DNA of 64,000 nucleotides from positions 5,391 to 69,390 of the forward strand of contig JBDRCT010000033.1 in the NCBI GenBank assembly GCA_043821445.1. Direction: 5' to 3'. Positions 1,003 through 62,699 of this stretch are shown here, piece after piece. This stretch comes from Candidatus Omnitrophota bacterium (GTDB taxonomy: Bacteria; Omnitrophota; Omnitrophia; Omnitrophales; Aquincolibacteriaceae). The translations under genes and the position numbers were made by a program. Under the pieces are notes generated by a model. That model saw nothing but the letters and a program-made list of their open reading frames with translations. It had not been told where the DNA came from and searched no databases. Numbering within the stretch: the first letter of the stretch is position 1; each line of letters starts with the position of its first letter.

Positions 1003-1076
1003 GGATAATAATATACTACACACAAGCTTTAGTGTTGAAATCTATCCTGACTTTTATTTTCTTTTTTAAAATGGTG

Positions 1077-4584: not shown

Positions 4585-4670
4585 CATATATAAAATCCTT
4601 TGACGATTTGATTTAATCCGCCAAAGAACCCGGCGGATCAAATTCGCACCTGTAACTTACGTGCCGTAAG

Positions 4671-15534: not shown

Positions 15535-15555
15535 CTGGAACCCCCTTATTTTTTA

Positions 15556-15602
15556 GTCCCAATACCTATCAATCTCAAACTTTTTGAAATTGGGGCAATC
15601 CT
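15556..15602 (+). repeat. family B repeat, intergenic copy directly upstream of DUF4870 gene start
   Basis: GTCCCAATACCTATCAATCTCAAACTTTTTGAAATTGGGGCAATCC. Confidence 0.55.
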
Positions 15603-15833
15603 TGTCAATCATTTAGAAAAAAATACAAGACAAGGATAGAAGCTCATTGCGGAATATTGTACCTCACTTCCAGGAAAAAACGATACCCTTCTTTCTCTGG
15701 CAAGATTAAAATAGGCCCTGTTCCGCCGACAATGCTTCACATCCCGTGTTGTGAAATATGAGACTTGCATATCATGCGCCGGATGTGGAAGGGGTGGCCA
15801 CTTGCCCCCCTCATTCCAAAAAAGGAGACAGTT

Positions 15834-17842: not shown

Positions 17843-18337
17843 CTACTCGAGGACTTGTTTGAAAAATTTGACGAACATTTCGGGGGTAACGCCAGTTGAA
17901 AGTTGTACGGCCCTGCCAGGCTGGGGCGGGTGAAGGAAAAAAGATGGATATCCGCGGACCCTGTATTGAAACGCGATATCATCCTCGCGTCTCCCGGATT
18001 CGGGATTGATATTGACTTTGATCATGTCCTTCATCATATCTTTGACAAGAGGCGACGACAGCACCCCTTTTTCGAACTTGCGGCAATAAGGGCACCACCT
18101 GACGCTCATATAAACGACCATCGGTCTATTGGTCTGCTTGTATTCTTCGACCGCCTGATCGTACCCGGAAGCACCCTGGTACCAACCCTCGGACCACTGA
18201 CCCGTAGCCGGTGCCCCGGCAGGCGTTGAAACGAATGGTGTGTACGATGCCCGTGGATCTTCGGCGTAGCATTCCGAACCCATGAGTAGAAGAGATAACA
18301 AAAAGAGCGAAACGATTTTTCTAGAATTCACATTCAC
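17843..18337 (-). CDS. secreted thioredoxin-fold protein
   Basis: Signal peptide; WCPYC CxxC active-site motif. Confidence 0.55.
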   Translation of the reverse strand: MNVNSRKIVSLFLLSLLLMGSECYAEDPRASYTPFVSTPAGAPATGQWSEGWYQGASGYDQAVEEYKQTNRPMVVYMSVRWCPYCRKFEKGVLSSPLVKDMMKDMIKVNINPESGRREDDIAFQYRVRGYPSFFLHPPQPGRAVQLSTGVTPEMFVKFFKQVLE

Positions 18338-18345
18338 CCCGTTAG

Positions 18346-18452
18346 AGATAGGAAACGTTTTTAAATAAACGCTTCCGTTTATGGCACAAATGCCCGCCTA
18401 AAGTTCATTCCCCTTCTATGGCAAATCGCCCGCAGAAAAATCTCTAACGGGG
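18346..18452 (+). mobile_element. MITE-like element, TIR family CCCCGTTAGAGATAGGA...TCTCTAACGGGG (copy 1, ~107 bp)
   Basis: Left terminus CCCCGTTAGAGATAGGAA, right terminus TCTCTAACGGGG (exact reverse complement); intergenic. Confidence 0.6.
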
Positions 18453-18615
18453 CAAGCCTCCCGAAATATTTTTTATATTCTAACATGGAGTCTCCCGGAA
18501 AATACGTTTCTTTTCAAACTCTAACCCCCTCATGCATTCGAGCGAGATTGCGAAGACATTTAGCCCTTTAAAAAAGCAGCGAAGTAGCGGGGTTTCTGGA
18601 TCCGAGGCAAACCCT

Positions 18616-24382: not shown

Positions 24383-24488
24383 CCCCGTTAGAAAAAAACG
24401 GGATGTTGCTTTTGGTTATTTTACGCGTCTCTTCTCGCCACGCTTCTTCCTGTGTTCTGCAACAACCGGTGTCAGTTTTCTAACGGGG
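24383..24488 (+). mobile_element. MITE-like element of the same TIR family (copy 2, ~106 bp)
   Basis: CCCCGTTAGAAAAAAACGGG ... TTTTCTAACGGGG; right terminus provides the last three codons and the TAG stop of etfA. Confidence 0.55.
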
Positions 24489-25517
24489 TGAAGCGAGGAG
24501 CTCGTTCACCTTGGCCATAACGGCGAAGGCATCGGCCACGTAGAGCACATCGGCCTTCCCTTGGGCCCAGCCGCAATTGGCGTCCATATTGACCGCGCGG
24601 CGTTCGTTGATAAAGCGCCAGCCGACCACGTGCGGTTCTTCTCCGTGACAGCAGGTGGAAAGGCCCTTCGGATGACGCGGCGTGGCGCCGGTCTGTCCGA
24701 CCTGGTTGAGATGGCTCATGAAGGAAAGCACCGCTTCCCCTTCCGACCCCTGGTCCACGAGCGATTTGCTGCTCCCGAGCGAGGCCTTGGCGTGTTTCAA
24801 GAAATCAAGAATATGTTTTTCGGCTTCCTTGGCATGGATCTGGCCATCCACCTGTTTTTTGGTCCATCCGGCACCCGCTACGAGCAGCACCGCGGCCTCC
24901 GGGCGAATGGTCTGCGCGTCTGCGGAAGGCGCTTCAACACCCGTCACTTTTGTGCGCTTTTCCTGGTCCGTCACAGCAACGGCAACCGCTTCCATTTTCG
25001 CCGCGCCTTTGGCCCCCTGCCACACCTCGAACACGCCGGAATCCACGGCGAGGATCCACGGCCGCGCCGCGCGAGTCAGTGTCGCCAACATGCGCTGACG
25101 ATAGTACCAGCGCTGGACCTGCAAAACGCCGCCGGTGAACTGTAGGCCGCTCACATGCGTATCGATCGTGGCCTTTAAACGGAATGCCGCGCCGGGCAAT
25201 GCCCTGGAAAAACGGGACGTTGCAGGGGCAACGATGATCGTCGCTCCCGAAGCGGTTCCGATGGCTTCCGCGGCTTTCACATCCGTTGCGTAACGCGAGG
25301 TCCCGAAATCAGCACCGCTCACGCCGAGCATTTTTGCTGCGCCGCATGCCGCGATCGAATCCGCGGCGGCCTGGACATTCTCCCCGACAAGACCGACGGT
25401 AAGCGTGGAACCCGCGAGGCCTTTCTGGACCTCAAGCGCCGCGTTTAAGGTTTCAAGCGCGACCTTCGGAAGAAGGCCGTTTGCATCCGTATGAGCTAAA
25501 AAGAGTATTTTTTCCAT
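24480..25517 (-). CDS. etfA: electron transfer flavoprotein alpha subunit
   Basis: 345 aa, EtfA N-domain and FAD-binding C-domain; last codons (SPR-stop) are encoded by the terminal inverted repeat of a MITE copy. Confidence 0.85.
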   Translation of the reverse strand: MEKILFLAHTDANGLLPKVALETLNAALEVQKGLAGSTLTVGLVGENVQAAADSIAACGAAKMLGVSGADFGTSRYATDVKAAEAIGTASGATIIVAPATSRFSRALPGAAFRLKATIDTHVSGLQFTGGVLQVQRWYYRQRMLATLTRAARPWILAVDSGVFEVWQGAKGAAKMEAVAVAVTDQEKRTKVTGVEAPSADAQTIRPEAAVLLVAGAGWTKKQVDGQIHAKEAEKHILDFLKHAKASLGSSKSLVDQGSEGEAVLSFMSHLNQVGQTGATPRHPKGLSTCCHGEEPHVVGWRFINERRAVNMDANCGWAQGKADVLYVADAFAVMAKVNELLASPR

Positions 25518-25786
25518 TATAGCCGTCCCCCCGTTAGAGATAGGAAGCGCTTCAATCGATTCTTCAAAAAACGTTTCCCCATCCCTGTTTTTAAATATCG
25601 TTCCCTTACTACAGCATCATTGATATCTATACAAGCTTCGTAATAAATTACCTCGAAAGGACCGCGCCCTTTAGTTGAAGCAACCCTGCCCTGCGAATGC
25701 TCCTTGAAGCGCTTCCGTAAATCTTTGCAAAATCCGGTGTAGAATTTTTTATCCCTCTGACTTTGCAAAACATACGTATAAAACAT
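25517..25786 (-). CDS. small stand-alone GIY-YIG nuclease-family protein (YhbQ/UPF0213-like)
   Basis: MFYTYVLQSQRDKKFYTGFCKDLRKRFKEHSQG...GPFEVIYYE...ERYLK matches the GIY-YIG catalytic core; lies between etfB and etfA, inside a 281-bp element with CCCCGTTAGAGA/TCTCTAACGGGG termini; its TAA stop overlaps the etfA ATG. Confidence 0.75.
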   Translation of the reverse strand: MFYTYVLQSQRDKKFYTGFCKDLRKRFKEHSQGRVASTKGRGPFEVIYYEACIDINDAVVRERYLKTGMGKRFLKNRLKRFLSLTGGRL

Positions 25787-25809
25787 TCCTCAACCAATCT
25801 CTAACGGGG
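25529..25809 (+). mobile_element. 281-bp member of the same TIR family carrying the GIY-YIG ORF (candidate autonomous or cargo-bearing copy)
   Basis: CCCCGTTAGAGATAGGAAGCGCTTC at the left, TCTCTAACGGGG at the right; fills the etfB-etfA intergenic space exactly; internal 89-aa GIY-YIG gene with SD supplied by the terminus. Confidence 0.6.
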
Positions 25810-26619
25810 TTAACCTCTTATCCAGGTTACGATCTCTTGGGCGATCTCTTCGACCGGCGTATCTTTGACGATGCGTGTCTGGCGCTGCTGCTTCGGCAGC
25901 TCCACGCTTGCGAATTTGATGGCGTCGGTCTTGAGCGCCGCGGGGGTCGCCTTCTGAAGGGCCGGCATAATGGTACGCATGTTCGTCATCCCGACCTGAG
26001 GATTGTTCGGCGGTTCCGGAAGATTTCCGGTCGCCCATCCGATCACGGCCGGGGCCCCGGCGCATGTGGAAACCAGGTATTGCCCGCCCTCGATACGCTC
26101 GAGGACCCTGAACGAGCCGTCCGGCTGGACCTTGAGTTCGTCGGCTGCAAGAAATACGTCATGGATCCCGAGCTGTTCGGCGATCATCTGCATCGTGGTC
26201 CCCGCGTCACGCGAAGCGGAGGAACAGCCGCCGAAGACGAGAAGCTTCGTTTTATCAAGTCCCGGGATCTTCTCGATCGCCCCGGCCAGGGCCGCCGCGA
26301 CTTCCCTTGAATCCATAAAACCGCTCGCGGAACCGTCAAGGCACACAAGCTCGAAGGGGACCTTCTGGGCGATGATCATCATGAGCTGTTGGAGCTTGGC
26401 TTTGGGCCCGAGGCTTAGGAGCGTCACCTTGCTTCCCGGGTTCTGCTTCGCGAGATTTGAGGCCTCAAAAAGGGAGTGCCCCGCCCACGGGTCCAGCACC
26501 GAAGGCAGCATCATTTCATTCTTAAGAGCGGGTCCGGTCGCCCCCTGGATCGGCTCCAGCGTCTGGAGCGGGTCCGGCACCAGACTCCCGCAGACTACGA
26601 TGTTAAAAGCTGTCGTCAT
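25810..26619 (-). CDS. etfB: electron transfer flavoprotein beta subunit
   Basis: 269 aa, EtfB fold (MTTAFNIVVCGSLVPD...LLSLGP...). Confidence 0.85.
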   Translation of the reverse strand: MTTAFNIVVCGSLVPDPLQTLEPIQGATGPALKNEMMLPSVLDPWAGHSLFEASNLAKQNPGSKVTLLSLGPKAKLQQLMMIIAQKVPFELVCLDGSASGFMDSREVAAALAGAIEKIPGLDKTKLLVFGGCSSASRDAGTTMQMIAEQLGIHDVFLAADELKVQPDGSFRVLERIEGGQYLVSTCAGAPAVIGWATGNLPEPPNNPQVGMTNMRTIMPALQKATPAALKTDAIKFASVELPKQQRQTRIVKDTPVEEIAQEIVTWIRG

Positions 26620-26627
26620 AATTCCCC

Positions 26628-26697
26628 TCCTTAAAAAATCAATTGAAAATTAGGACTGCCCAAGTCGCCGTTCATTAAAAGAAAACCAAGACTTGGG
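26628..26697 (+). repeat. hairpin element of the same family (copy b)
   Basis: TTAAAAAATCAATTGAAAATTAGGACTGCCCAAGTCGCCGTTCATTAAAAGAAAACCAAGACTTGGGCG; flanked by 14-bp direct repeat CGTCATA(A/G)TTCCCC containing the etfB start codon. Confidence 0.6.
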
Positions 26698-26708
26698 CGT
26701 CATAGTTC

Positions 26709-26838
26709 CCCCGTTAGAGATAGGATGCGCTTCTACTTTAAGAGCGCATCCGCTTGTTAATGAAATATAACCTTTTAATCCTTTACCCTCCGATAGAAAT
26801 CTCTTTCAAAAATATCGTCAAACCGATCTCTAACGGGG
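26709..26838 (+). mobile_element. MITE-like element of the same TIR family (copy 4, ~130 bp)
   Basis: CCCCGTTAGAGATAGGATGCGCT... (9-bp perfect hairpin GGATGCGCT/AGCGCATCC) ... GATCTCTAACGGGG. Confidence 0.6.
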
Positions 26839-26929
26839 TAAACCTTCCCTATTGAATGATTTCTGGGGAAACCGCGTCTTTATTGGGTCACTGGGCGGAC
26901 ATTATAATGAGGGAACTACTTTTCGGCTA

Positions 26930-27012
26930 GTCCCAATTCCATTCAATCGAAGCGAAGCTGAGATTGGGGCAATCCTGGCTACCATTTTTCAAAAGAAAAC
27001 AAAAGTCAGGGC
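26930..27012 (+). repeat. family B repeat with downstream hairpin module
   Basis: GTCCCAATTCCATTCAATCGAAGCGAAGCTGAGATTGGGGCAATCCTGGCTACCATTTTTCAAAAGAAAACAAAAGTCAGGGCAG. Confidence 0.5.
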
Positions 27013-27108
27013 AGTATCTTTTTGTTCAAGTACGCTAAAGACCCGGTCTTAAAAGGCTCTCAAAGACCGGGTCTTGGAATGGGTGTGCGGGGACTCACCC
27101 GTCTCTGC

Positions 27109-28249: not shown

Positions 28250-28441
28250 ACGCCCCCCCTTGCTTTGTGATTTTTACAGTTAGATTGCATTTTACTCCCG
28301 CCTCCTAGTCCTGCCTATTCAAAAAAGTCGAATGGTACCCCGCCAGAGGCGGACAGGCGGGTTCACCACAGTGCTGCTTCGCTGCAAAAAGAGCGGCTAC
28401 TTTGGGATCACGTTATGCGCCTGTCCCCTTTTCGGTGACTG

Positions 28442-29452
28442 TCACCCGCCTAGAAGCAGATACCCTTCTGGAAGCTTTGCGGCACCTTCTATAATTATTT
28501 CTTCTTCACATGTAAAGGTTTGGGCTCCTTTGCTATAGTCTTTCCATCGTTTATCATAAATTTTGCGATCAATAAGAGATATGTCATCTGTGCGCTCTTT
28601 TGCTACAGTCTTGAGATGAAAACTTCTTCCGAGCAAAATTCCGCCACAATCTGTTAGTATATATCGGTTATGCAACTCATCGCCGCCTTCTCTCTTCCGC
28701 CATCTAATAAATGTAACTTTTAAGCCTTTGGGAATACATCGTGGCAGAAGCTTTTCACAACAATCCTTAAAATACTTAGGATCTTTGCTATTACAGGATT
28801 CGAAGTTAACATGCATTTCAACAACTATGTCTTTGAGACTTCCCTCTTCACGATATTTGCAAAGCTCTTCCAAAAAATGTTTTAAAAAAATTGTAATTTT
28901 AGAATCTTCTGGCGAAAAATGAGGATCAATAAATTTAACGAATTGACAGATTCGAAGCATTGGCGAAACTGCTTGAGCCATTGCTACCGGCTCCATATTG
29001 ATAGTTTCGCCCAGGGACATTTCCCATTTCGCAGATCCTTCATGCTTTAAATCCTTTGGATTAATAATGGCCTTTTCAAGATCCGTAGCAACTTCTGCAA
29101 CGATTGCTTGAAATGGTATGGATTCATGAGCCGATAAAGCATTTTCGAGCCAACTATCTCCTTCTCTCCAATTATGATAAACGCGCTGTACCATAACCTC
29201 ACAAACACTTTGTATAAATTCCGTTAAAGCATGTAACTCCTGCTGCCTCTTTGCTTCCTCTTGCGGATTTTGAGGGGGTGAAATTGAGACTTCTTTTTGG
29301 TAGGCTCCTTCAACTTTTTTTTTCCAGTCCTTAGGAAAACGAGACAAAATGCGCGGCTTCCCAATGCCGAATTCCCCCTTGAAATCTTTCGCAGAATTTC
29401 GGTGGTAACACTTGGCTGCTACGTTTGGATCGAGAGCGTATTCGAAAATCAT
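28442..29452 (-). CDS. uncharacterised 336-aa partner protein of the island ATPase (candidate effector)
   Basis: ATG 3 nt downstream of the ATPase stop (translational coupling); no domain confidently recognisable by eye; C-terminal ELHNRYILTDCGGILLGRSF loosely resembles an HxK/R(x)4D(x)6G HKD/PLD-type motif. Confidence 0.6.
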   Translation of the reverse strand: MIFEYALDPNVAAKCYHRNSAKDFKGEFGIGKPRILSRFPKDWKKKVEGAYQKEVSISPPQNPQEEAKRQQELHALTEFIQSVCEVMVQRVYHNWREGDSWLENALSAHESIPFQAIVAEVATDLEKAIINPKDLKHEGSAKWEMSLGETINMEPVAMAQAVSPMLRICQFVKFIDPHFSPEDSKITIFLKHFLEELCKYREEGSLKDIVVEMHVNFESCNSKDPKYFKDCCEKLLPRCIPKGLKVTFIRWRKREGGDELHNRYILTDCGGILLGRSFHLKTVAKERTDDISLIDRKIYDKRWKDYSKGAQTFTCEEEIIIEGAAKLPEGYLLLGG

Positions 29453-29455
29453 TGA

Positions 29456-31102
29456 TTAAAAGAGCTCCTTTGATCGTTCTGCAAAAAAACCTTCCGGCCA
29501 AGGCCTTAAAAATTCACCTTCCGCGTTAATCGGAATATGAATTATTTCGGATCCTTGCTTTCCTCTCTGAGCATATAAAACAGCCAGCTGTTCTGGTTTT
29601 AATGCAAACTCACCCTTAGATAACTCGCCATGCGTTGTCTCTCGGATGCGACGCAATAAACGGAGAATTAAATGTTCACTGTGCGTTTCGATTATAAAAT
29701 GATTGTTGCGTGGCTCTTTAATACTGCTGATGAGCAAATCTCCAAGATCGGCTTGTAGACGTGGGTGTATATGAACCTCGGGCTGCTCAATAGTTATAAC
29801 TTGTCTATCCGCTGCCAGACTTTGCACGATGAACGGAAGAATTTGGCTGATGCCAAATCCGACATCTTGAAGACAGACATCAACGCTCGGTTTTCTCAGG
29901 CTATCAACTAAACGAACTTCGAAAAGATCTTTAGCTCGTTTTGTTAGCGGAGAAACTTTTAGTTTATACCCAATTTCTAGCTGTTTCAGCCATTGATTGG
30001 TTTGTTTCAAAAGTTTTGGGTTCCTAAGCAAAAGATCGGGTAAGTGATCTCCTTTATATCCAACATTTTTTGGATTTGTACCCGTAAATATATACCACCG
30101 TTCCGGAGGCATCCTATAGGGCCCCAAGGGAAACACTTCCTGTAAATTATTTTGCAGTCCTCTTCCAATAATCGTGGCCATTCGTTCTAAGTCCAAATAA
30201 AATACCATATCAGTTTCATCCATCGTTCTGATGACATCTTGTTCGGGCAGCTCTTCGTTTGAAGAAAGTGGAATGCCAAATGGGATAAATCCGCTTAACC
30301 CTAGAATGGTTTTCACCTCTCGTTTTATTATTCTGTCTACAAATGCTTTATAATCAAAATTCCCGGAATAAAACTCAACGGCCGCATTGATCTCTTTTAT
30401 CCGTTTTTCGTAAATCTCGGAGCCCTCTTGCTCATCAACAATTCTTGAATCTTTCCTGCGCTGTTGAACTTTTAACGATCTTTGCAGCTCGGTAACGATT
30501 GTTTGAGCATTTGTTTTTGCATTTTTAAAAAAAGAATCCCATATTAAAGGATTGTCTGTAATCCAAGAACATTGGACGCCGCTAATATCCCTTTTTAATG
30601 TTTGCCGCTTTGATCGAGGAAAGAAGAGAAGTCCTCCCATTTCGTGTTGCTGTTCTGCTGTAAAGGTAATTGGAATAAGTTTTGCGAAATGCACGTCCTC
30701 ATTTTGGCAATACATATAAAGATCGATTTCTTTTAATTGCACTTCACTTTGTACTGAGCGTCGTTGAAATGACACCTTTATTCCACAGAGAGAAGATGGC
30801 CATTTTTTAACGTAACGCGTAGGCGGCATACTAAACCTTAAAAAGAATTTTAATTCTCTTTCTAAATCGTGATCAAATATCAACTCTTGAAAGCTTCCTA
30901 AATCAACCAGCCCATTTTCAGCTCGAGGCAATAATGTTGCATTGTCACGGTCTTCCACTGTTTGCTTCAATAAACTTATAGCCTGCAACACGGAGCTTTT
31001 GCCTGCACTATTCTGTCCAAAAATTAATGTTATGGGTGCAAATGGTATTCGAGTTCTTTCACCGAAAGCTTTGAAATTTTCAAGCTCCAATAATTCCAAC
31101 AT
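29456..31102 (-). CDS. ABC/SMC-type AAA ATPase (AAA_15/AAA_21-like; OLD/AbiL/PARIS/Septu-class defence ATPase architecture)
   Basis: N-terminal MLELLELENFKAFGERTRIPFAPITLIFGQNSAGKSSVLQA Walker A; C-terminal VITIEQPEVHIHP Walker B and IIETHSEHL H-loop; long central insertion; trimmed from ORF 29456..31189. Confidence 0.8.
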   Translation of the reverse strand: MLELLELENFKAFGERTRIPFAPITLIFGQNSAGKSSVLQAISLLKQTVEDRDNATLLPRAENGLVDLGSFQELIFDHDLERELKFFLRFSMPPTRYVKKWPSSLCGIKVSFQRRSVQSEVQLKEIDLYMYCQNEDVHFAKLIPITFTAEQQHEMGGLLFFPRSKRQTLKRDISGVQCSWITDNPLIWDSFFKNAKTNAQTIVTELQRSLKVQQRRKDSRIVDEQEGSEIYEKRIKEINAAVEFYSGNFDYKAFVDRIIKREVKTILGLSGFIPFGIPLSSNEELPEQDVIRTMDETDMVFYLDLERMATIIGRGLQNNLQEVFPLGPYRMPPERWYIFTGTNPKNVGYKGDHLPDLLLRNPKLLKQTNQWLKQLEIGYKLKVSPLTKRAKDLFEVRLVDSLRKPSVDVCLQDVGFGISQILPFIVQSLAADRQVITIEQPEVHIHPRLQADLGDLLISSIKEPRNNHFIIETHSEHLILRLLRRIRETTHGELSKGEFALKPEQLAVLYAQRGKQGSEIIHIPINAEGEFLRPWPEGFFAERSKELF

Positions 31103-31166
31103 AGGACACCTCTTTGTTTTGTAATAGGTACAGAAGGACTGGTGACAGTCACCTTTTGGGGGACAG

Positions 31167-31460
31167 TCATTCGCTAACGCGAACGGCATGTCCTTTTTCG
31201 ATGAGTTCGTTATTCAGATACAGATTGCTGCCGTTCTTTTGTTCTACGAAAACGTCACCCAGATATCGGTCGTACTTGTCGGACTTGACGGTTTTGATGG
31301 TTAGATAATCTACCCCTTTGAGGGTGGTTTCAACGAATTCCTTCGCTTCTATGCCGTCGCGGGTTTGGATCTCGGGGCAGTCGATACCGCGAACGGAAAT
31401 CGGAGGCGTTACTGCCAGTGCCAGGCTATTCCCCCACCCTAACTTTAGACTGCAGACCAT
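31167..31460 (-). pseudogene. 5'-truncated staphylococcal-nuclease (SNase)-like gene fragment
   Basis: Encodes only the C-terminal ~70 aa of an SNase domain (RGIDCPEI...KEAKEFVE...KSDKYDRYLGDVF...YLNNELIEKGHAVRV), paralogous (~75-80% nt identity) to the 3' end of gene 34331..35554; N-terminal VxDGDTI strands missing. Confidence 0.55.
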
Positions 31461-40395: not shown

Positions 40396-41082
40396 TCAAT
40401 TTCTTGGATTCCCGATACCCGCCCCGTCACAAATGATGGCGCGCCGCCTCAATTCGAAGAAGCATTTCACGCAACAAAGCACATCGGACGCCGCATTGTG
40501 CTGATCTTCAAAATCCACATCGAACAGCTTGACATGAAGCTCGGATAATTTCGGCCACTTGTTGCCGCCCAAACTTTTCATTTCTTTTCCAGGATGGTAG
40601 TTTGGACGGCCCCAATCTCCGCTTTGCTTCGATTGATTGGTATTGGGACCGTACGACCTCGGGATCTTGCAAAACTTCGTCGAGCTTTTCATGGTGCATA
40701 TTTTTTTGATCGTCCGTAGCCCATCCGGCATTCCCCGGCGCAAAAGCTCCACCCGGACCATTTTTTCATCGAAATCCAGATTATGCGCCACAAGACACGC
40801 GACACCCGGGATCGCTCCGGAGAACTCCCTCAAAACCTCCGCGGCCGGGCGCCCTTCTTTCAATGCCCTTTCGGTGCTGATGCCGTGGATCGCCGTCGCG
40901 CTTTCGGGGATCACGAAACCTTCCGGTTGGATCATGTGATCGTGAAGCTCAAGCTGTGTCCCGTCTTCGTCAAAAAGCGCCCAGGCGATCTGAACGATGT
41001 GCGGCCAGTTCCCGAGATCGGAAACGGGGGCCTTCCAGCTTTTCGGCAATCCGGTCGTTTCCGTATCAAAAAAAAGATACAT
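40396..41082 (-). CDS. DnaQ-like 3'-5' exonuclease (DEDDh family) carrying an in-frame repeat insertion
   Basis: MYLFFDTETTG Exo I motif, HNLDFD Exo II, NAASDV Exo III; ~30-aa segment (GPNTNQSKQSGDWGRPNYHPGK) is encoded by a copy of the GTCCCAATACC...ATTGGGGC repeat. Confidence 0.7.
   Translation of the reverse strand: MYLFFDTETTGLPKSWKAPVSDLGNWPHIVQIAWALFDEDGTQLELHDHMIQPEGFVIPESATAIHGISTERALKEGRPAAEVLREFSGAIPGVACLVAHNLDFDEKMVRVELLRRGMPDGLRTIKKICTMKSSTKFCKIPRSYGPNTNQSKQSGDWGRPNYHPGKEMKSLGGNKWPKLSELHVKLFDVDFEDQHNAASDVLCCVKCFFELRRRAIICDGAGIGNPRN
40600..40649 (-). repeat. family B repeat inserted in-frame inside the exonuclease CDS
   Basis: Minus-strand GGTCCCAATACCAATCAATCGAAGCAAAGCGGAGATTGGGGCCGTCC translated as GPNTNQSKQSGDWGRP. 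Confidence 0.55.
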
Positions 41083-41193
41083 TTTTACACCTTTATTGAG
41101 ACGCGTTTTCCGGCATGACAATATTTGTAAGTAATCGCCTTCCAGGAGGGAAAACCGGAAAAGATATTTGCGTTTAAGAGATCTTTCATGACG

Positions 41194-41805
41194 TTACTTC
41201 CCGGCCACGAATTCGAGCACCACATCTGCTTGCTTAGCCGCGGCAACACTGACCCGTGGCGATAAAGCTGGTGCTTTTTCGATGTCCGACGCAAGGTCCC
41301 CGATCAGAATGAGGTTCGGTTTGAGCTTTCGGACCTTCAGATCATCACTGGAGCCCCATCCCCCCAGTCCGGAAGCGGAGACGATCAATTTTCCGGTCGG
41401 GAGTATTCCGGACACGAGCATGCTCTTGGCTTCGGCCCGGTCGAGACACTCCACCACGACGTCGCAGTTCCGGAATATTTCCGGGATATTGGCGGGTTCT
41501 AGCTTCACGGACAGCATTTGAAGTTCGAGCCCGGGATTGATGCGGAGGAGATTGGTCCGTAATGCTTCGACTTTTTCCATCCCGACCTGATCCGCGAAAT
41601 AGAATTGCCGGTCCAAATTGGAAGGATCGATGCGATCGAAATCCACGATCGTAAAATGCCTGAAACCGACCCGGACGAGGCAGGCCGCGCAATTGGAGCC
41701 CAGGCCGCCCGCGCCCGCAATGCCGATCTTCGCTTTTTCGATCTTCGCGAGCTTCGCTTCACCGAGCTTTTCAATAAGGTCCTGCCGGAACGCGTCCATC
41801 ATCAA
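41194..41805 (-). CDS. thiF: ThiF/MoeB-family adenylyltransferase (ThiS activation)
   Basis: IGIAGAGGLGSN Rossmann/ATP motif, E1-like fold; last gene of the thiS-G-H-F string. Confidence 0.75.
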   Translation of the reverse strand: MMMDAFRQDLIEKLGEAKLAKIEKAKIGIAGAGGLGSNCAACLVRVGFRHFTIVDFDRIDPSNLDRQFYFADQVGMEKVEALRTNLLRINPGLELQMLSVKLEPANIPEIFRNCDVVVECLDRAEAKSMLVSGILPTGKLIVSASGLGGWGSSDDLKVRKLKPNLILIGDLASDIEKAPALSPRVSVAAAKQADVVLEFVAGK

Positions 41806-42998
41806 ATTTGCATCCAGTCTTTCAACACCGGCTGGTACCCTTTGGCGACGAGCATCGCTTTGAACTCTTCGACGCTCCGCGGGTCCGAGATCTCAAACTG
41901 GGAAGCATCCTCCCCTTCCGCCCCGACTTTTATTTTCTTTTGATCAACGGTAGTCGGGACGGCCCCAATTTCAACCCCGTTAAAATTGATAGGTATTGGG
42001 ACCGGAGATCCGAGCGTGTGGCCGCCGACGCGTGTCGTCGAGCCCGCCGACATGCGCGTGACCCCGAGAGGCAAAAGATGCTCGCGCAGCGAAGCGCTTT
42101 CCCGCGTGGAAAGCGTGATCCCGATCCGCGGCAGGAAAAGCCTCAAGGCCACGATGATCTGCGTCATGTTCCTGTCGCTTACCTCCGTCATTTCTTTGAA
42201 ATCCCCGGCATGCGGCCTCAGACGCGGAAGCGAAACTCCGATCTCGACCTCTCCGTAGCGGTCCTGCAAATACCGGGCGTGAAGGCCCACCCAGAAAACT
42301 TCTTTCCGCCAATCATTCAATCCCAGAAGCGCCCCGACGTTCACGCTTCTCATTCCATTCTTCGCGGCGCGCTCCGGCGCGTCAAGCCGGAAGCGGAAAT
42401 CTTTTTTAGGCCCCGCCTTATGCACCTGCTCATAAACCTCCGCATCATAGGTCTCCTGATATAAGGTCAATCCATCGACACCTGAACGTACGAGGTCCGC
42501 GTATTCCTCTTCCGTGAGTGCGTAGATCTCGACGGCAAGAGAGCTGAAATATTTTTTGAGTACTTTGAGGCATTTTTTGATATAGGACAGCGGACTTTTT
42601 TCCCTCGAATCTCCCGTCAGGATAAGAAGATGCTCGATCCCTGTCGAAGCGATGAACGCGGCCTCTTTTTCCACTTCTCCCAAAGTCAGTGTTCTCCGAG
42701 GTATTTTGTTCAGGGTATTGAACCCGCAATAAGCGCACTCATTCTCGCAATAATTCGAAAGATACATCGGCGTGTAAAGCTGGAGGGTCCTGCCAAAGTG
42801 CATCAGGGTCAAGGCATGCGCCCTTTGCGCCATGGGCTCTAACAATCTTTCCGCAGCCGGAGAAAGAAGCGCCAAAAGACGCGCGGGATCTTGCGCGTCG
42901 GAATGGATCGAACGCTCAACGTCTTGGAGTGAAATCTCACGGAAGATCTTCTCGGAAGGAAGGTCCTTATATTTCAGAAGGGTATCGTAGTAGCTCAT
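41802..42998 (-). CDS. thiH: 2-iminoacetate synthase (tyrosine lyase, radical SAM) with in-frame repeat insertion near C-terminus
   Basis: CENECAYCGF radical SAM motif, ThiH-specific C-terminus (...QFEISDPRSVEEF...PVLKDW); ~25-aa insertion VPIPINFNGVEIGAVPTTVDQ encoded by repeat copy at ~41952-42003. Confidence 0.8.
   Translation of the reverse strand: MSYYDTLLKYKDLPSEKIFREISLQDVERSIHSDAQDPARLLALLSPAAERLLEPMAQRAHALTLMHFGRTLQLYTPMYLSNYCENECAYCGFNTLNKIPRRTLTLGEVEKEAAFIASTGIEHLLILTGDSREKSPLSYIKKCLKVLKKYFSSLAVEIYALTEEEYADLVRSGVDGLTLYQETYDAEVYEQVHKAGPKKDFRFRLDAPERAAKNGMRSVNVGALLGLNDWRKEVFWVGLHARYLQDRYGEVEIGVSLPRLRPHAGDFKEMTEVSDRNMTQIIVALRLFLPRIGITLSTRESASLREHLLPLGVTRMSAGSTTRVGGHTLGSPVPIPINFNGVEIGAVPTTVDQKKIKVGAEGEDASQFEISDPRSVEEFKAMLVAKGYQPVLKDWMQI
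41952..42003 (-). repeat. family B repeat inserted in-frame inside thiH
   Basis: Minus-strand GTCCCAATACCTATCAATTTTAACGGGGTTGAAATTGGGGCCGTCCCGAC translated as VPIPINFNGVEIGAVPT (different frame from the exonuclease copy). Confidence 0.55.
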
Positions 42999-45464: not shown

Positions 45465-45704
45465 TTAGTAGTTAAAAAGGTCCCGGTGTGCGAATTTTTG
45501 TTCGGGGAGCGCGTTGTGCAAGGCGCTCAGGATCTTGGCCTTGGCCCGGACCGTAAGGCGCCTCCCCTTGCGTGCCTTTTGCACCACCTTGTGAGACAGC
45601 TGCTCGGTCGAGGCCGCAACAAGCGCGTGGTTTGAAAGCCCATGCTTGGCCATAAGGGCATCCAGGGGCTGCGCACCGAGGTCGTTCGTTCCCTTGATCG
45701 TCAT
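45465..45704 (-). CDS. small conserved hypothetical protein
   Basis: 79-aa ORF directly downstream of rho (4-nt overlap). Confidence 0.45.
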   Translation of the reverse strand: MTIKGTNDLGAQPLDALMAKHGLSNHALVAASTEQLSHKVVQKARKGRRLTVRAKAKILSALHNALPEQKFAHRDLFNY

Positions 45705-46720
45705 TGTAACTTGCTCACGGCAGTGAGAAGGTCTTTTGTCACAGGATATTTCTTGAACTGTTCGATCAACGCGCTGATTGCTTCGATGGGCTTAAGCCCG
45801 GCCAAGGCGCGGCGTATCCGGCGCGACGGTTCCAGTTCCTGTGGCGTAAAAAGAAGTTCTTCCTTACGCGTTCCGCTTTTGGATATGTCCACCGCCGGAT
45901 AAATACGCTGGTTCGAGATCTCACGCGATAGAAAGATCTCCATATTTCCCGTTCCTTTGAATTCTTCAAAAATGAGCTGGTCCATGCGGCTCCCGGTATC
46001 CACAAGGATCGTCGCGAGGATCGTAAGCGACCCTCCGTGTTCGATCTTGCGGGCCGATCCGAAGATCCGCCGCGGCACTTCCATGGAACGCGCATCCACG
46101 CCCCCGGAAAGTGTCCGGCCGCTGGAACGTTGTTCCGCATTATGCACGCGCGCCAAACGGGTCAAAGAATCGACTAGGACCATCACGTTCGCGCCGGCCG
46201 CAACCTCGCGATACACTTGTTGCATGAGCTCCCGGGCGGTCTGGATATGATGGTCATAAGTTTGGTCGGATGAAGACCACCGGACTTCGGCCGTCACGCT
46301 GCGACGGAAGTCCGTGACCTCCTCGGGCCTTTCATCGATCAAAAGACAATAAAGCTTCATCTCCGGCCGGCTTTTTGCCACGGCCTGACAAAGATGCTTG
46401 AGAAACGTTGTTTTTCCGGAACCCGGAGGCGCCACGATCAGTCCACGCTGACCCATCCCGATCGGTGTGATAAGATCCATGACGCGCATCGTAAGTTCCT
46501 GAGAGCCGTCTTCAAGCCGGATCCGTGGCGAGGGATCGACGGCCGTACTGGCAAAAAACTTCTGCTCATCTTCAGCCACCACGCGCTGAGGTTCCCCATG
46601 CGGCGGTCGGTGAGCATGACGATGGGAATGGGAACCCCGGTTGGGGCGACGCTCGCCGCGGTGTCTTTGATCGGTATTGGGACCACGCCCTGAACGCTCC
46701 CGGTGTTCAAAGTTTCTCAT
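45701..46720 (-). CDS. rho: transcription termination factor Rho, atypical (no N-terminal OB-fold RNA-binding domain; Arg-rich N-tail)
   Basis: Q-loop, Walker A GSGKTT, R-loop and C-terminal Rho motifs all present from LTMRVMDLITPIGMGQRGLIVAPPGSGKTT onward, but only ~75 residues precede them and they are Arg/His-rich low complexity; start overlaps ABC-F stop by 14 nt. Confidence 0.8.
   Translation of the reverse strand: MRNFEHRERSGRGPNTDQRHRGERRPNRGSHSHRHAHRPPHGEPQRVVAEDEQKFFASTAVDPSPRIRLEDGSQELTMRVMDLITPIGMGQRGLIVAPPGSGKTTFLKHLCQAVAKSRPEMKLYCLLIDERPEEVTDFRRSVTAEVRWSSSDQTYDHHIQTARELMQQVYREVAAGANVMVLVDSLTRLARVHNAEQRSSGRTLSGGVDARSMEVPRRIFGSARKIEHGGSLTILATILVDTGSRMDQLIFEEFKGTGNMEIFLSREISNQRIYPAVDISKSGTRKEELLFTPQELEPSRRIRRALAGLKPIEAISALIEQFKKYPVTKDLLTAVSKLQ
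46634..46684 (-). repeat. partial family B repeat forming part of the rho 5' coding region
   Basis: GGTCCCAATACCGATCAA... encodes GPNTDQ within the Arg-rich N-tail of Rho. Confidence 0.45.
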
Positions 46721-48524
46721 GCTTGAAATTTCCCCATTTTTTTTCTAAAGAATTCCACTCCGCCTCGGCAGCTTCGATCTGGATCTGCAGTTCTTTTAAG
46801 CGCACATTGCGCTCCTTAGAAAAATGAAGCGGGTTCTTCGCCATCTCCTCCAAGACCTTGTTCCGCTCCTCTGTGAAATGCCGCGCACGTCCTTCGGCTT
46901 TTTCCATGCTCTTGCGGAGCTTCGTAAGCTCGACCTTGTGCTCATTCTTCTTAGGCTGCTGAATTTCGACAGGGGGCTTGGAAGCCTTATGGGGGAGAGA
47001 CGCAGACGCGTTGTTTTCATCGCTGTCTTCTTCCTCGCCCCGGGCCACCTGCTCCAGGTGATAAACATAATCCTCATAGCTTCCGGGGTAGTGCAGGATA
47101 CGGCCTTTCTTCACTTCGAGAATGCTTGTCGCCAGAAGATTGACAAAAGTCCGGTCATGGCTGATGAAAAGCACGGTGCCGGAAAAGGCTTTAAGCGCCC
47201 GACCCAAGGCCTCCACCGTTTCGAAATCCAAGTGGTTCGTCGGCTCATCGAGAAGCAGGACATGGCTCTTGGAAAGAAGCAGTCCGGCCAGAACGAGACG
47301 CGCGCGTTCACCGCCGCTTAGAACCTTCACTTTTTTTGAAACGTCATCTCCTTTAAAAAGAAAGCACCCGGCCATGTTCAGCACATCCTGATTGCTGACC
47401 CCTGCCGCGCTTTCGCGCGAAAGATAAGTGTAAATATCATCCTCCGGGTCAAGCACCGCAAAGACATGCTGCGCGTAATAGGCCACTTTGAGCCCGGTTC
47501 CCCAACGAAAACTGCCCCCTTTGGGCGCGAGATCCCCCGCGAGCGTCATGAGAAAGGTCGTCTTCCCCTCACCGTTATTGCCGAGCACCGCGACATGCTT
47601 TCCCCGGTCGATCTCGACTTGGATCTTTCGCGCGATATCTTTTTCCGGATAGCCGATGACAAGATCTTCACAGCTGACCGCCACTCCCGCTTTCGGCTCC
47701 ACAGGCGGGATATGGATCTTAACCGTGCTCATGGGGTGTGCGATCTCGATCGTTTTAAGTTTTGCGAGTTGTTTCATTTTCGACTGTGCACGCGTCGCCG
47801 TGGAAGCCTTCGCCTTGAACCGGTCAATGAAGATCTGGAGTTGTTCCCGTTTCTTGTCGAGACCGCGGTTATAGGCCTGTTTCTGGGCGAGTTGCTCCTC
47901 CTTGAATTCGAAATACTCTTCAATGTCCCCGGGATAAAGGGCAAGCCCTCCGTTCTCGACCTCAAGCGTGTGATCACAGGTCCGCTTCAAGAATTCCCGA
48001 TCGTGGGAGACGACCAGATACCCGCCTTTGAAATCGAGCAGAAAATTTTCTAAAAGGATCAACGTGCTCAAATCTAAATAGTTGCTAGGTTCGTCAAGAA
48101 TCAGGAAATTGGGGTCGCCCAAAAGCATTGCCGCAAGCTTCACGCGCGTCTGAAAACCTCCCGGAAGATTCCGTACGGATTCTTCAAGGATCTCATTTTC
48201 AAGCTGGAACCGCGCGGCGATCTGCCCGCACTCCCAATGCTCGCTCCGCGTGGTGCGCATCAGGAAGTCCACCACCCGCTCCCCGGGCTTGAACGTATCA
48301 TGCTGTTCGAGATAGGAGAGGCGCAACGCAGCGTTGCGCGTGACGGTACCGCTTTCAGCCGATTCGTGTCCGGTGATGATACGGCAAAGCGTGGATTTCC
48401 CGGCCCCGTTGCGGCCGATCACACCGATCTTTTGATCATCTCCGAATGACGCGGTGGCGTTATCGAGGATCGTTACAGCGCCATAGGCCTTGTGCAATTC
48501 ATTGACTTGTAATAAGACGGTCAT
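46707..48524 (-). CDS. ABC-F family ATPase (two ABC domains, no TMD; Uup/YheS/EttA-like)
   Basis: Two Walker A (GRNGAGKST, GNNGEGKTT), two LSGGE signatures, C-terminal coiled-coil. Confidence 0.85.
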   Translation of the reverse strand: MTVLLQVNELHKAYGAVTILDNATASFGDDQKIGVIGRNGAGKSTLCRIITGHESAESGTVTRNAALRLSYLEQHDTFKPGERVVDFLMRTTRSEHWECGQIAARFQLENEILEESVRNLPGGFQTRVKLAAMLLGDPNFLILDEPSNYLDLSTLILLENFLLDFKGGYLVVSHDREFLKRTCDHTLEVENGGLALYPGDIEEYFEFKEEQLAQKQAYNRGLDKKREQLQIFIDRFKAKASTATRAQSKMKQLAKLKTIEIAHPMSTVKIHIPPVEPKAGVAVSCEDLVIGYPEKDIARKIQVEIDRGKHVAVLGNNGEGKTTFLMTLAGDLAPKGGSFRWGTGLKVAYYAQHVFAVLDPEDDIYTYLSRESAAGVSNQDVLNMAGCFLFKGDDVSKKVKVLSGGERARLVLAGLLLSKSHVLLLDEPTNHLDFETVEALGRALKAFSGTVLFISHDRTFVNLLATSILEVKKGRILHYPGSYEDYVYHLEQVARGEEEDSDENNASASLPHKASKPPVEIQQPKKNEHKVELTKLRKSMEKAEGRARHFTEERNKVLEEMAKNPLHFSKERNVRLKELQIQIEAAEAEWNSLEKKWGNFKHEKL

Positions 48525-48542
48525 TGTCTAAGATTCTTTTCC

Positions 48543-48679
48543 ATTAGGGTTGATGATAACCGCCCAATTTCCGCCCAAGTCTTTGTTTTCTTTTAATCAA
48601 TGGCGACTTGGGCGGCACTGATTACCTTCATTTTGAAACAGAATCAAGTGCCGCTACGTAGAAATTGATAGGTGTTGGG
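48543..48679 (-). mobile_element. 137-bp composite repeat element inserted at the pyk/ABC-F junction with a 26-bp flanking direct duplication
   Basis: Contains GCCGCCCAAGTCGCCATTGATTAAAAGAAAACAAAGACTTGGGCGG hairpin (reverse orientation) plus TCCCAACACCTATCAATTT module; flanked by ACGGTCATTGTCTAAGATTCTTTTCC (48517-48542) and ACAGTCATTGTCTAAGATTTTTTTCG (48680-48705). Confidence 0.6.
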
Positions 48680-48683
48680 ACAG

Positions 48684-49703
48684 TCATTGTCTAAGATTTT
48701 TTTCGGTAAATTTAATGATCTGGCTCATCATTTCAACGCATTGAACGGGATAAAGGCCAGCGGCAGATTCGGCGGAAAGCATCACGTAGTCCGTTCCATC
48801 GAGAATTGCGTTCGCCACATCACTGACTTCGGCGCGGGTCGGGATGGGATGTTCCGTCATGCTCTCAAGCATCTGGGTCGCCGTGATCACGAATTTCTTC
48901 GCCTTATTGCATTTCTTAATGATCTTCTTCTGAATCGAGGGCACTTCATAAATCGGAACAGAGATCCCCATATCCCCGCGTGCGACCATGATCCCTTCGC
49001 AAACGCTTATGATTTCATCGATATTTCGGATCCCTTCCCGGTTCTCAATCTTGGCGATCACGTCGCATTCGTGGGAGTGGCTTTTCAGATGAGACCGGAG
49101 ATCTAAAATATCCCTTTTATTCCGTACGAAAGATTGTGCGATATAATCCACTTTATGCTCGATGCAAAAATGAATGTCCTCCCTGTCCTTCCGGGTCAGC
49201 CCCGTGACATCCAATTGCACGCCAGGCATATTGATTCCTTTGCGTTCTTTGATCGCACCTCCAACGATCACGCGAGTCTTGAGATTTTTTTGATCACGAG
49301 CCTCGACTTTGAGGGCAATAAGACCGTCGTCAATGTAGATAAGCTGGCCTGGTTTGATAGGTCGCAAAGAACCCACCCAATCAAAGGGAATATGGGAATT
49401 TTCTCCGACCGTGTTTTCCGTCGTGAGCCAGAGAATCTGCCGCTTCTTGACCTCGACCGGCTTCTGCCCCTTCAGCTCACCAATCCTCATTCGATAACCT
49501 TCGAGATCTCCCAGGATTTGGATGCGGCGGCGATATTTTTTGTTCAGCGCTCTGATGAGACAGATCTTCTCCCGGTGCTCCGCAAGCGTTCCGTGGGAAA
49601 AATTAAGCCGTACCACATCCATTCCCGCACGCATCATCTGCCGCAGGACATTGGCCCGGCTTGAAGCGGGACCCAGCGTGCAAATGATCTTTGTGCTCGT
49701 CAT
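48684..49703 (-). CDS. pyk: pyruvate kinase (short form lacking C-terminal regulatory domain)
   Basis: [14 protein letters not shown]..., [16 protein letters not shown]+/Mg site motifs; 339 aa. Confidence 0.8.
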
Positions 49704-50956: not shown

Positions 50957-52396
50957 TTAATATTTATAATGCTCGGGTTTGTAGGGACCATCGAGAGGAA
51001 CGTCAAGATACTCGGATTGTTTTTTCGTAAGCCTTGTGAGCCGGGCGCCCAGTTTTTCCAAATGGAGCCGGGCCACTTCCTCATCAAGCTTCTTCTCAAG
51101 GCGATAAACGCCGGGCTTTTTAGGGTTCATCACCAGATCGATCTGCGCGAGCGTCTGATTCGTGAAGGAGTTCGACATCACAAAGCTCGGATGGCCCGTG
51201 GCACAGCCAAGGTTCACGAGACGGCCTTCCGCAAGAAGAATGATCGAATGCCCGTCCGGGAAAACATATTTATCGACCTGCGGTTTGATGTTGATCTTTT
51301 TGATGCCCGGCCACTTTTGAAGCTGAGCGACCTGGATCTCATGATCAAAATGTCCGATGTTGCAGACGATAGATTCGTCCTTCATCTTGGACATGTGTTC
51401 GGCGGTGATGACGTCGATATTGCCCGTCGTGGTCACATAGATATCCCCGATATCAAGCACATCCTCCAGTCGCGCGACTTGAAAACCGGCCATTGTCGCC
51501 TGGAGCGCACAGATCGGATCGATCTCGGTCACGATGACGCGAGCTCCGAAACCGTGCATGGCCTGGGCGCTGCCTTTGCCCACGTCCCCGTAGCCTAACA
51601 CCACGGCAACCTTGCCCGCGATCATTACATCGGTCGCTCGTTTGATGCCATCCGCCAGGGATTCGCGGCACCCGTAGAGATTATCAAATTTGGATTTGGT
51701 CACAGAATCGTTCACGTTGATTGCCGGGACCAGAAGTTTCCCCTGTTCCTGCATTTTGTACAGGCGACGAACGCCCGTCGTCGTTTCCTCGGAAACGCCT
51801 TCCCATTCCTTGACCACTCTGTGCCATTTCCTGGGATCGTCCTTCATGACCTTTTTCAGAAGTTTGAAAAGTTCGATCTCGTCCTGAGTGCCGACCTTCT
51901 TGTCGAGGATCTTCGGATCTTTCTCCGCGTCATAACCCAAATGGATCATGAGCGTCGCATCGCCCCCGTCGTCCACGATAAGATTCGGGCCCTTGCCGCC
52001 CGAAAAGTTGAGCGCCTGGAGCGTACACCACCAATATTCTTCCAGAGTCTCTCCTTTCCAAGCGAACACCGGAATGCCCTTCACGGCCAAAGCGGCCGCG
52101 GCATGGTCCTGTGTGGAAAAAATATTACAGGAGCACCAACGAACATCGGCCCCAAGCTCGATCAAAGTCTCGATCAGTACTGCGGTCTGGATCGTCATGT
52201 GGAGACTGCCCATGATCCGCTTGCCCTGAAGAGGTTTCTTGGGCCCGTACTTCTTGCGGGTCGCCATCAGCCCCGGCATTTCTTTCTCGGCCATATCGAG
52301 TTCCTTACGGCCCCAGTCGGCAAGCGAAAGGTCCGCGACCTTGAAATCGTTCTTCACTTTGAAAGCATGGACTTTCTTTTTGCCTTTTTTTGTCAT
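50957..52396 (-). CDS. ahcY: adenosylhomocysteinase
   Basis: SAHH motifs ([16 protein letters not shown]-like N-terminus, [13 protein letters not shown] motif); trimmed to MTKKGKK. Confidence 0.9.
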
Positions 52397-52412
52397 GGTC
52401 TTTTCTTCTAAG

Positions 52413-57518: not shown

Positions 57519-57589
57519 TAATTAAAAAAATGAATTGGAAATCATGGCTGCCCAAGTCACCCTTATTAAAAAAAACAAAGACTTGGGCG
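57519..57589 (+). repeat. hairpin element of the same family (copy c)
   Basis: AATTAAAAAAATGAATTGGAAATCATGGCTGCCCAAGTCACCCTTATTAAAAAAAACAAAGACTTGGGCG; flanked by CATGAT(C/T)TTCCTT 13-bp direct repeat; between yvcK-like and ptsH. Confidence 0.6.
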
Positions 57590-57618
57590 TCATGATTTTC
57601 CTTGATCAAAATGGGCAA

Positions 57619-62566: not shown

Positions 62567-62567
62567 A

Positions 62568-62680
62568 GTCCCAATACCTATCAATTTTAACGAAGTTGAA
62601 ATTGGGGCTGCCCTGATTACCATTTAGGAAAAGAAAATAAAAATCAGGGCTGTCCCAACTACTCTTTATATAAAAAAATC
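62568..62680 (+). repeat. family B repeat plus hairpin module, abutting the lpxL-family start codon
   Basis: GTCCCAATACCTATCAATTTTAACGAAGTTGAAATTGGGGCTGCCCTGATTACCATTTAGGAAAAGAAAATAAAAATCAGGGCTGTCCCAAC; three GTCCCAA/TTGGGAC-type units. Confidence 0.55.
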
Positions 62681-62699
62681 TAAAGTTGGGATAGGCGGA

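Follow-up and report, generated by a model that had tools for sequence, protein, structure and literature searches.

A mosaic copy of a dispersed palindromic repeat family as the probable source of a 26-bp duplication between pyk and an ABC-F gene in Candidatus Omnitrophota

The 64,000-nt stretch of Candidatus Omnitrophota DNA analysed here (hereafter the window; contig JBDRCT010000033.1 of assembly GCA_043821445.1) contains an insert flanked by a 26-bp direct repeat, located between the pyruvate kinase gene pyk and the gene of an ABC-F family ATPase. This insert is a composite member of a dispersed family of palindromic repeats that are built from two modules, A and B. We favour, at a probability of roughly 0.6, the reading that the feature is a B-A-B mosaic copy of this family, the 26-bp repeat being the tail of a B module that stands on both sides of A. 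The repeat is then probably a repeated module and not the footprint of a transposase. Read in this way, the mosaic is selfish or neutral DNA and not a device, and it persists because both reading frames stay whole.

Both genes are located on the minus strand. The pyk gene (48684-49703) encodes a 339-aa protein recognised by the Pfam PK barrel (1.8e-118) and NCBIfam pyruvate kinase models. Its best relatives, like the exact match of the ThiH protein of the window, carry the annotation Candidatus Omnitrophota. The protein consists of the barrel domain alone, the C-terminal PK domain being unmatched, and its length is conserved in most of the retrieved relatives labelled Omnitrophota, Planctomycetota or Verrucomicrobiota (L001-L080). 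The ABC-F gene (46707-48524, with its ATG at 48522-48524) encodes 605 aa with two ABC_tran domains and one ABC_tran_Xtn domain (Pfam). NCBIfam assigns this protein to the generic ABC-F type, with 379.9 bits against a ribo_prot_ABC_F cutoff of 380. An earlier reading of the window, made from the sequence only, had described two 26-bp copies with 23/26 identical positions, and this count was borne out; by adding one base, the plus-strand sequence GACGGTCATTGTCTAAGATTCTTTTCC (48516-48542) is matched by 48679-48705 at 24/27 positions, with 3 mismatches. The 27-mer has no other match in the window, and none is expected by chance (100 dinucleotide shuffles). The same reading had placed the ABC-F ATG in one copy (48516-48542) and the pyk residues EKNLRQ plus TGA in the other (48679-48705), in agreement with the sequence. 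Copy 1, on the pyk side (48679-48705, minus strand; CGAAAAAAATCTTAGACAATGACTGTC on the gene strand), combines E-K-N codons with a B-module tail. The end of pyk reads ...ACC GAA AAA AAT CTT AGA CAA TGA (E K N L R Q stop) within this copy, and the B tail supplies L-R-Q, the TGA stop and an ATG. Copy 2, on the ABC-F side (48516-48542, minus strand; GGAAAAGAATCTTAGACAATGACCGTC), covers the 3′ half of the loop of a B module, the 3′ arm of that module and the start codon of the ABC-F gene, which begins with ATG ACC GTC. The 136-137 nt that separate the copies (48543-48678/9) are strongly self-complementary.

The family unit is about 84-90 nt long. Module A is a 41-nt hairpin (GTCCCAAY..TCAAT..GARATTGGGGC), and module B is made of a stem (median 9 bp) and a conserved loop (median 23 nt) whose consensus, ACCaTTtaGGAAAAGAAATtAAA, was built from 57 unrelated loops. 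Hairpins and repeats were detected by simple heuristics. A metagenome scan with a pattern for the first hairpin (A) matched at least 120 stretches, from which 140 distinct copies, sampled through their near-consensus A module, were analysed. The B stems vary from copy to copy, with 86 different 5′ arms among 131 copies and 96% Watson-Crick pairing. In these 131 copies, stem mismatches are G:T in 19 cases and A:C in 15, and show no strand bias. The two types being equally frequent, the palindrome is kept at the DNA level, with no sign of selection on an RNA strand. A hint of RNA-level selection had come from six window copies, in which G:U wobbles were confined to the gene strand; it was dropped when the 131 copies were counted.

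Seven full copies of the family, and several partial ones, are present in the window. Intergenic copies were found at 1038-1127 (minus strand, nhmmer E=2.2e-22) and, on the plus strand, at 15555-15643 (E=4.2e-17), 26929-27019 (E=1.3e-24, with a solo B module nearby at 26642-26697) and 62567-62652 (E=3e-23, with another partial match after it at 62647-62695). B-type modules that are partial or stand alone, with no A next to them, are located at 210-259, 26642-26697, 57532-57593 and 62647-62695, and two of them end in GACTTGGGCGTCAT. Rfam gave no match at the gathering threshold over the whole window, and only chance-level matches (E>=3.8) for 48400-48800 at E<=10. Combining Omnitrophota or Omnitrophica with palindromic, MITE-type (miniature inverted-repeat transposable element), repetitive or interspersed repeats retrieved nothing relevant from the searchable literature. 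The family is apparently undescribed, as far as we could find, and very abundant in Candidatus Omnitrophota.

At the pyk/ABC-F junction, the sequence-only reading had proposed that the insert combines two repeat modules, and parts of A and B modules were recognised in it. The insert is a composite: an A module with one inverted and one direct B-type hairpin in its loop comes first, and a B module comes after it. Read along the gene strand, the order is B tail (48705-48679), A 5′ half (48681-48653), inverted B (48652-48614), B (48613-48573), A 3′ half (48572-48562) and final B (48561-48516). The family profile matches 48568-48681 (nhmmer, E=2.5e-8). Both halves of A are present on the minus strand, the 5′ half at 48653-48681 (GTCCCAACACCTATCAATTTCTACGTAGC) and the 3′ half at 48562-48572 (GGAAATTGGGC), split by the nested hairpins. 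The inverted B-type hairpin (48614-48652, minus strand; GGCACTTGATT ... AATCAGTGCC) was recognised as an inverted repeat with a predicted fold, and when reverse-complemented it is similar to GCACTGA-type B modules found in L090 and L091. The direct one (48573-48613, minus strand) is a perfect 11-bp inverted repeat, GCCCAAGTC and GACTTGGGC, enclosing a 23-nt loop; it shows an 87% match to the solo B module at 26648-26699. Units nested within A loops are also seen in L120 and L193.

The final B module has a weakened stem. Its 5′ arm and loop start (48542-48561, minus strand) consist of a degenerate arm, GGTTATCATC, and the loop beginning AACCCTAATG; at the orthologous loci of L008, L003 and L002, the 5′ arm is paired to the arm that holds the start codon. 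The ABC-F AUG lies within the 3′ arm of the predicted B hairpin, which in the window has a 9-bp stem including 2 G:U pairs. The copy-2 loop, AACCCTAATGGAAAAGAATCTTA, is 23 nt long with GAAAAGAA at offset 10, within the 9-10 usual for the family, and is in register with the consensus ACCaTTtaGGAAAAGAAATtAAA. Since this consensus was derived from unrelated copies, copy 2 belongs to the element. The family junction rule [YNG]TCCCAA...[YNG] also applies, with CTG before TCCCAAC on the left and CCG at the end of the right copy. Two extensions of the duplication, to 38-41 nt in all, were rejected as chance matches: on the ABC-F side, the extra match is the conserved A-module end, and on the pyk side, the ATCATYAA extension is nearer to the family 5′-arm consensus than to pyk.

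The repeats that flank other copies of the family are usually short. The common junction is [YNG]TCCCAAT...B-stem[YNG], with a repeat of typically 3-4 nt, and a repeat of at least 2 nt plus G was found in 86/135 copies, against 27.6 expected by permutation. Across the family, repeat length has its mode at 3-4 nt including the G and ranges from 0 to 41 nt. Repeats of 18 nt or more occur in 8/140 copies, and those that were inspected correspond either to tandem arrays (L097, L174 and L002) or to a B tail on both sides of A. The latter arrangement was seen in L178 (31 nt), L134 (27 nt), L091 (22 nt) and L145 (18 nt), a complete upstream B being confirmed in L091 alone. For these reasons we do not favour the view, put forward in the sequence-only reading, of a 26-bp target-site duplication produced by an unusual insertion mechanism. 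The module arrangements encountered are A-B, A-A-B, tandem (A-B)n, B-A-B, and units nested in the loop of another A. Metagenome contigs L097 (1532-1783), L174, L099, L185 and L189 carry tandem A-B arrays with an 84-nt period and A-A-B forms; the tandem arrays imply that the family can grow locally, in a minisatellite-like way.

We compared the junction in 14 fetched loci in which pyk is followed by an ABC-F gene. Six of them (L001, L006, L007, L050, L082 and L083) have no element, and their native pyk stop is followed by a 20-39-nt spacer. In L003, L008 and L004 an element occupies the same place as in the window, immediately after ATGACNG in an upstream copy of the sequence around the ABC-F start, and a second copy rebuilds the ABC-F start. 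L002 carries two tandem 87-nt units and a degenerate third, and element remnants are present at the junction in L084 and L012. The number of units at this junction is 0 in L081 and L001, 1 in the window, L003, L008 and L004, and 2 in L002.

L081 (GCA_041643255.1, contig JBGGGX010004601.1) is the closest relative, with 90% identity for pyk and 92% for the concatenated pyk and ABC-F proteins. An empty site with an ATGA overlap in a related genome had been anticipated from the window sequence, and L081 provides it: pyk (1765-2784) and the ABC-F gene (2781-4589) share an ATGA stop/start overlap, and the junction ...accgaaaaacatcttaggcaATGActgtcttattacag is exactly that of the window minus the insert and one repeat copy. 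This locus overturned a first model in which no relative had such an overlap. The overlap had also been taken for an ancestral translational coupling, and here the comparison led to the opposite conclusion. It is recent and derived, because the 13 other loci that keep pyk beside ABC-F (two of which carry the same pyk protein on two contigs) have their own pyk stop and a 20-266-nt spacer, and because the LRQ* tail is found in the window and L081 only. The other pyk tails listed mostly belong to 339-aa proteins ending in TEK[HN]xxx*, and the more distant ones vary. In a neighbour-joining tree, the window and L081 are sisters, nested among L001, L002, L082, L084 and L003, with L008 outside, and are thus placed inside an element-carrying clade.

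These data suggest a scenario for the mosaic. A deletion would have joined the native pyk codons GAAAAAAAT, which are also present in relatives without the element (L082 and L001), to a similar B-loop run, GAAAAGAAT, at the GAAAARAAT similarity. The fusion would predate the split between the window and L081, since L081 has the junction in common. The left-hand tail would thereby have become the end of pyk, providing Leu-Arg-Gln, the TGA and the ATG of a short upstream open reading frame (uORF), and the right-hand tail would hold the ABC-F ATG in its 3′ arm. Units would have been gained and lost through recombination between the repeated tails; the occurrence of 0-, 1- and 2-unit alleles at one locus is the product expected of unequal recombination or slippage between such tails. 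As the GAAAAAAAT part of copy 1 is native to pyk, at most CTTAGACAATGACYGTC (17 nt) would be repeated by descent. In L081, a unit could have been excised by recombination between the repeats, or the locus could be in the condition that preceded the regain of a unit. The second ABC-F codon has a slight bearing on the direction of change between the window and L081. It is ACT in L081 and in the left copy of the window and ACC, the state of most relatives, in the ABC-F gene of the window; the ACT of L081 is a small point that favours excision.

An alternative that we hold as tentative, and would not expect to be the right one, is a fresh insertion accompanied by a true long duplication. An A-B unit with nested hairpins would have entered an L081-like ATGA overlap after ATGACYGTC, and a target of about 17-26 nt would have been copied, by widely staggered breaks or by microhomology-primed template switching, so that both the pyk stop and the ABC-F start were rebuilt, one at either end of the insert. 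The exact empty site in the closest relative and the fact that the repeats abut the element ends agree with this scenario. So do the ATGAC-containing flanking repeats found at three independent loci, namely ABC-F, SAHase (L003) and Rho/next gene (L002), for all of which empty alleles exist in the window or in relatives. L098 adds a fourth start-codon case (GTGGCTG/ATGGCTG), in which a Shine-Dalgarno sequence is located in the loop. On the other hand, repeat length in the family is not fixed, being mostly 3-4 nt and reaching 41 nt, and the fit of the right copy to the B-loop consensus implies that at least 9-10 of the 26 nt do not come from pyk. These 9-10 nt, at the left of copy 2, are difficult to reconcile with an origin of both copies from one duplicated target. 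L008 has a left copy of the native type (GACCATGACC), whereas the right copy, AACAATGACC, is paired with its own complementary arm, GGTCATTGTT; this difference argues that the right copy was carried by the element. Finally, the ACT/ACC state of ABC-F codon 2 needs two substitutions under a fresh insertion and one under excision.

Several observations weigh against the mosaic reading. The deletion fusing pyk to a B loop is suggested by sequence comparison alone, and the empty site of L081 is predicted equally well by a fresh insertion with a 26-nt duplication. Parsimony on the tree, which carries no support values, is about even between one gain with four losses and about five gains. At the Rho-stop site of L002, the 9-nt repeat ACAATGACG is present without mismatch on both sides of the element and cannot be a resident B tail, the site having none; this also counts in favour of a fresh insertion and implies that some copies acquire or target a junction homology longer than 3-4 nt. 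Furthermore, every genome compared is a metagenome-assembled genome (MAG).

The last point raises the question of an assembly artefact, in which duplicated or chimeric reads would have been joined at the repeat, a high-copy repeat in a MAG being a classic source of misjoins. We regard this as very improbable. The two copies differ at 3/27 positions, both open reading frames (ORFs) are intact and full length, and independent assemblies from other projects have the same architecture at the same junction, the repeat-flanked element being present there in four assemblies of other species.

Start codons are occupied by the family at other loci as well. In L002, the element (~4955-5060) splits an ATGA overlap between the Rho stop and the next gene, the empty allele of which is found in the window at ~45701-45704 (45692-45712). 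In L003, an element (~1215-1330) sits on the start of SAHase; the empty allele in the window is at ~52396 (52382-52408), and the real SAHase start is probably the ATG near this position rather than the GTG at 52444 picked by the ORF finder. Gene calls outside the pyk/ABC-F locus are crude ORF picks. In start-type copies, the B arms read GTCATKGTC/GACMATGAC, so that the ATG is part of the stem. Such copies are suggestive of homology-guided insertion or of a uORF relay, both of which are minority readings. More speculatively, and with low expectation, the family or an 'ATG-stem' subfamily might be propagated by a mechanism that is templated by homology or by a hairpin and directed at ACMATGAC starts and ATGA overlaps. 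The target segment would be left three times, in direct, inverted and direct orientation (X - A - X′ - loop - X), and the old ATG would open a uORF through the element, with a stop one codon before the rebuilt, hairpin-held ATG. If true, this would be a selfish element adapted to gene starts and self-repairing for translation, with a junction-homology mechanism unlike cut-and-paste transposition.

The position of the ABC-F AUG could also be taken for a sign of function. As a translational leader, the element would keep an initiation site in its left copy and would let ribosomes translating the uORF unwind the B hairpin that sequesters the AUG and stop beside it, ABC-F being made by termination-reinitiation, either as a relay or as an attenuator like those of resistance-type ABC-F genes. 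The frame of the copy-1 ATG is indeed open through the element; in L002, in L008 and at the L003 SAHase site it closes with TAG or TAA one codon ahead of the rebuilt ATG, and at the L003 ABC-F site it overlaps that ATG as ATGA. The AUG is located in the 3′ arm of a B hairpin predicted to have 15 bp in L008 and 9 bp in the window, and the element is kept at this site in five species. Nevertheless, we consider such a role unlikely. The element is also present at unrelated genes and inside ORFs, and is absent from L081, L001 and L082. In the window, the 19-codon uORF (48628-48687, minus strand), whose ATG overlaps the pyk TGA as ATGA, terminates within a nested hairpin, some 100 nt short of the ABC-F ATG, and the 5′ arm has decayed. 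Stem mismatches without strand bias give no indication of RNA-level selection, and the protein is a generic ABC-F of no named resistance type. A dedicated ABC-F attenuator was therefore set aside as the main explanation, the uORF and structure not being specific to ABC-F (SAHase, Rho/next gene, ThiH and elsewhere). We also rejected GGAAAAGAA as a ribosome-binding leader common to this genome, most window genes having a GGAGG-type Shine-Dalgarno sequence. The element resembles the leader attenuators of erm and resistance-type ABC-F genes in its short uORF upstream and its hairpin holding the main AUG. It differs from them in not being ABC-F-specific, in its absence from close relatives and in its truncated uORF in the window.

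Copies of the family were also found inside coding sequences. In the window, one lies in frame (41916-42003, minus strand) in the ThiH (2-iminoacetate synthase) gene (41802-42998, minus strand) and adds 28 residues, VPIPINFNGVEIGAVPTTVDQKKIKVGA. This 28-aa insert is common to five protein clusters of 398-399 aa, the other 115 listed homologues being, with few exceptions, about 370 aa long. Alignment A1 shows the corresponding 28-aa gap, including in a homologue that is 91% identical outside the insert, and L205 has the empty site at the DNA level (CCC|GAA, against CCG|G...GCG|GAA when filled). A second copy (40561-40650, minus strand) is apparently in frame in the ORF of a DnaQ-like DEDD exonuclease (40396-41121). 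It is read in a different element frame (GPNTNQSKQSGDWGRPNYHPGKEMKSLGGN) than the ThiH copy, and the same peptide frame is used by a Rho insert of L081 and L082. This full in-frame element, at ~4622-4710 in L081 and ~5894-5980 in L082, is located at the Rho codon-12 site, which is empty in L084, L001, L003 and L002. In the window, the short-form Rho gene (45701-46720) retains after codon 12 a 17-nt remnant of the repeat, GGTCCCAATACCGATCA (46668-46684, minus strand).

The closest behavioural parallel is with the Rickettsia palindromic elements (RPEs), small high-copy palindromes that are inserted in frame within unrelated housekeeping genes and read as an extra peptide (PMC10969869). The Omnitrophota family is likewise found in frame in ThiH (+28 aa), Rho (L081/L082) and, apparently, the DnaQ-like exonuclease. 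In-frame, stop-free insertions that close homologues lack are present in the family (ThiH and Rho), but the pyk/ABC-F copy is not one of them, being intergenic and at a junction. The likeness drawn here is one of behaviour. The Omnitrophota units are shorter (84-90 nt against ~100-150), occur in a different phylum and have two separable modules that are also found alone, inverted, nested or in tandem. Unlike RPEs, they also occupy the precise positions of start codons and stop/start overlaps and rebuild the ATG there.

Other comparisons are partial. The pneumococcal BOX, RUP and SPRITE elements cluster (PMC10969869). Like the Omnitrophota family, BOX elements are modular units of variable number and orientation, clustered and inserted into one another. 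A comparable modular mosaic is offered by the E. coli bacterial interspersed mosaic elements (BIMEs), which are mosaics of repetitive extragenic palindromic (REP) sequences. However, BOX elements and BIMEs are essentially extragenic, whereas the Omnitrophota family tolerates coding positions and combines a copy-specific B stem with a conserved loop. Classical MITEs (Correia/NEMIS, ERIC and RUP) are likewise short, non-coding, hairpin-forming and present in high copy number, and the 3-4-nt YNG junction repeat of about two thirds of the Omnitrophota copies may be comparable to theirs. In contrast to MITEs, the Omnitrophota family lacks terminal inverted repeats that span a whole unit: inverted repeats are found within each module, and the two ends of the unit, GTCCCAAT... 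and ...stem-YNG, do not form an inverted pair. Its flanking repeats, with a YNG that may come from the target or from the element, vary in length, and among ten window ORFs, including those of a low-GC island, no transposase, recombinase or parent insertion sequence was found. Integron attC sites follow the order core - cargo - inverse core - loop - core, and conserve hairpin shape over sequence. The Omnitrophota topology X - A - X′ - loop - X is similar by analogy only: there is no integrase, attI or conserved GTTRRRY core, and most copies have 3-4 nt of the left-hand X.

The family thus extends RPE-like behaviour outside Rickettsiales, to an uncultivated phylum with small genomes in which repeats stand in frame within essential genes (ThiH and Rho). 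It also illustrates how a repeat can occupy a stop/start overlap or a start codon and kill neither gene, its tail bringing a stop codon to one of them and an ATG to the other. Sister species have 0-, 1- and 2-unit alleles through the gain and loss of tandem units, and this bears on the use of such junctions as strain markers. The annotation of MAGs is affected as well, in the choice of start codons, in uORFs and in conserved proteins that seem to have an N-terminal extension or an insertion. A concrete mechanistic question is posed by the conserved loop, by B stems that are specific to each copy and by the threefold start-codon segment at several loci.

Two further features of the window were noticed. 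A low-GC island (28400-31200; GC 0.42, against about 0.52-0.55) is bracketed by a 26-nt inverted repeat (28421-28446 / 31141-31166). Its genes encode an AAA_15/AAA_21 and DUF3696 ATPase (29456-31189), a product with no Pfam match (28442-29452) and a staphylococcal-nuclease-like fragment (31167-31460), and the island may be a mobile defence-type cassette. A second, unrelated repeat consists of three pairs of inverted CCCCGTTAGAGATAGGAA / TCTCTAACGGGG motifs, at 18328-18459, 25520-25816 and 26700-26845. Two of these pairs lie about 10 nt upstream of starts, those of a thioredoxin-like gene (17843-18337) and of an ETF subunit gene (24480-25517), and the motif could be an operator or a leader motif.

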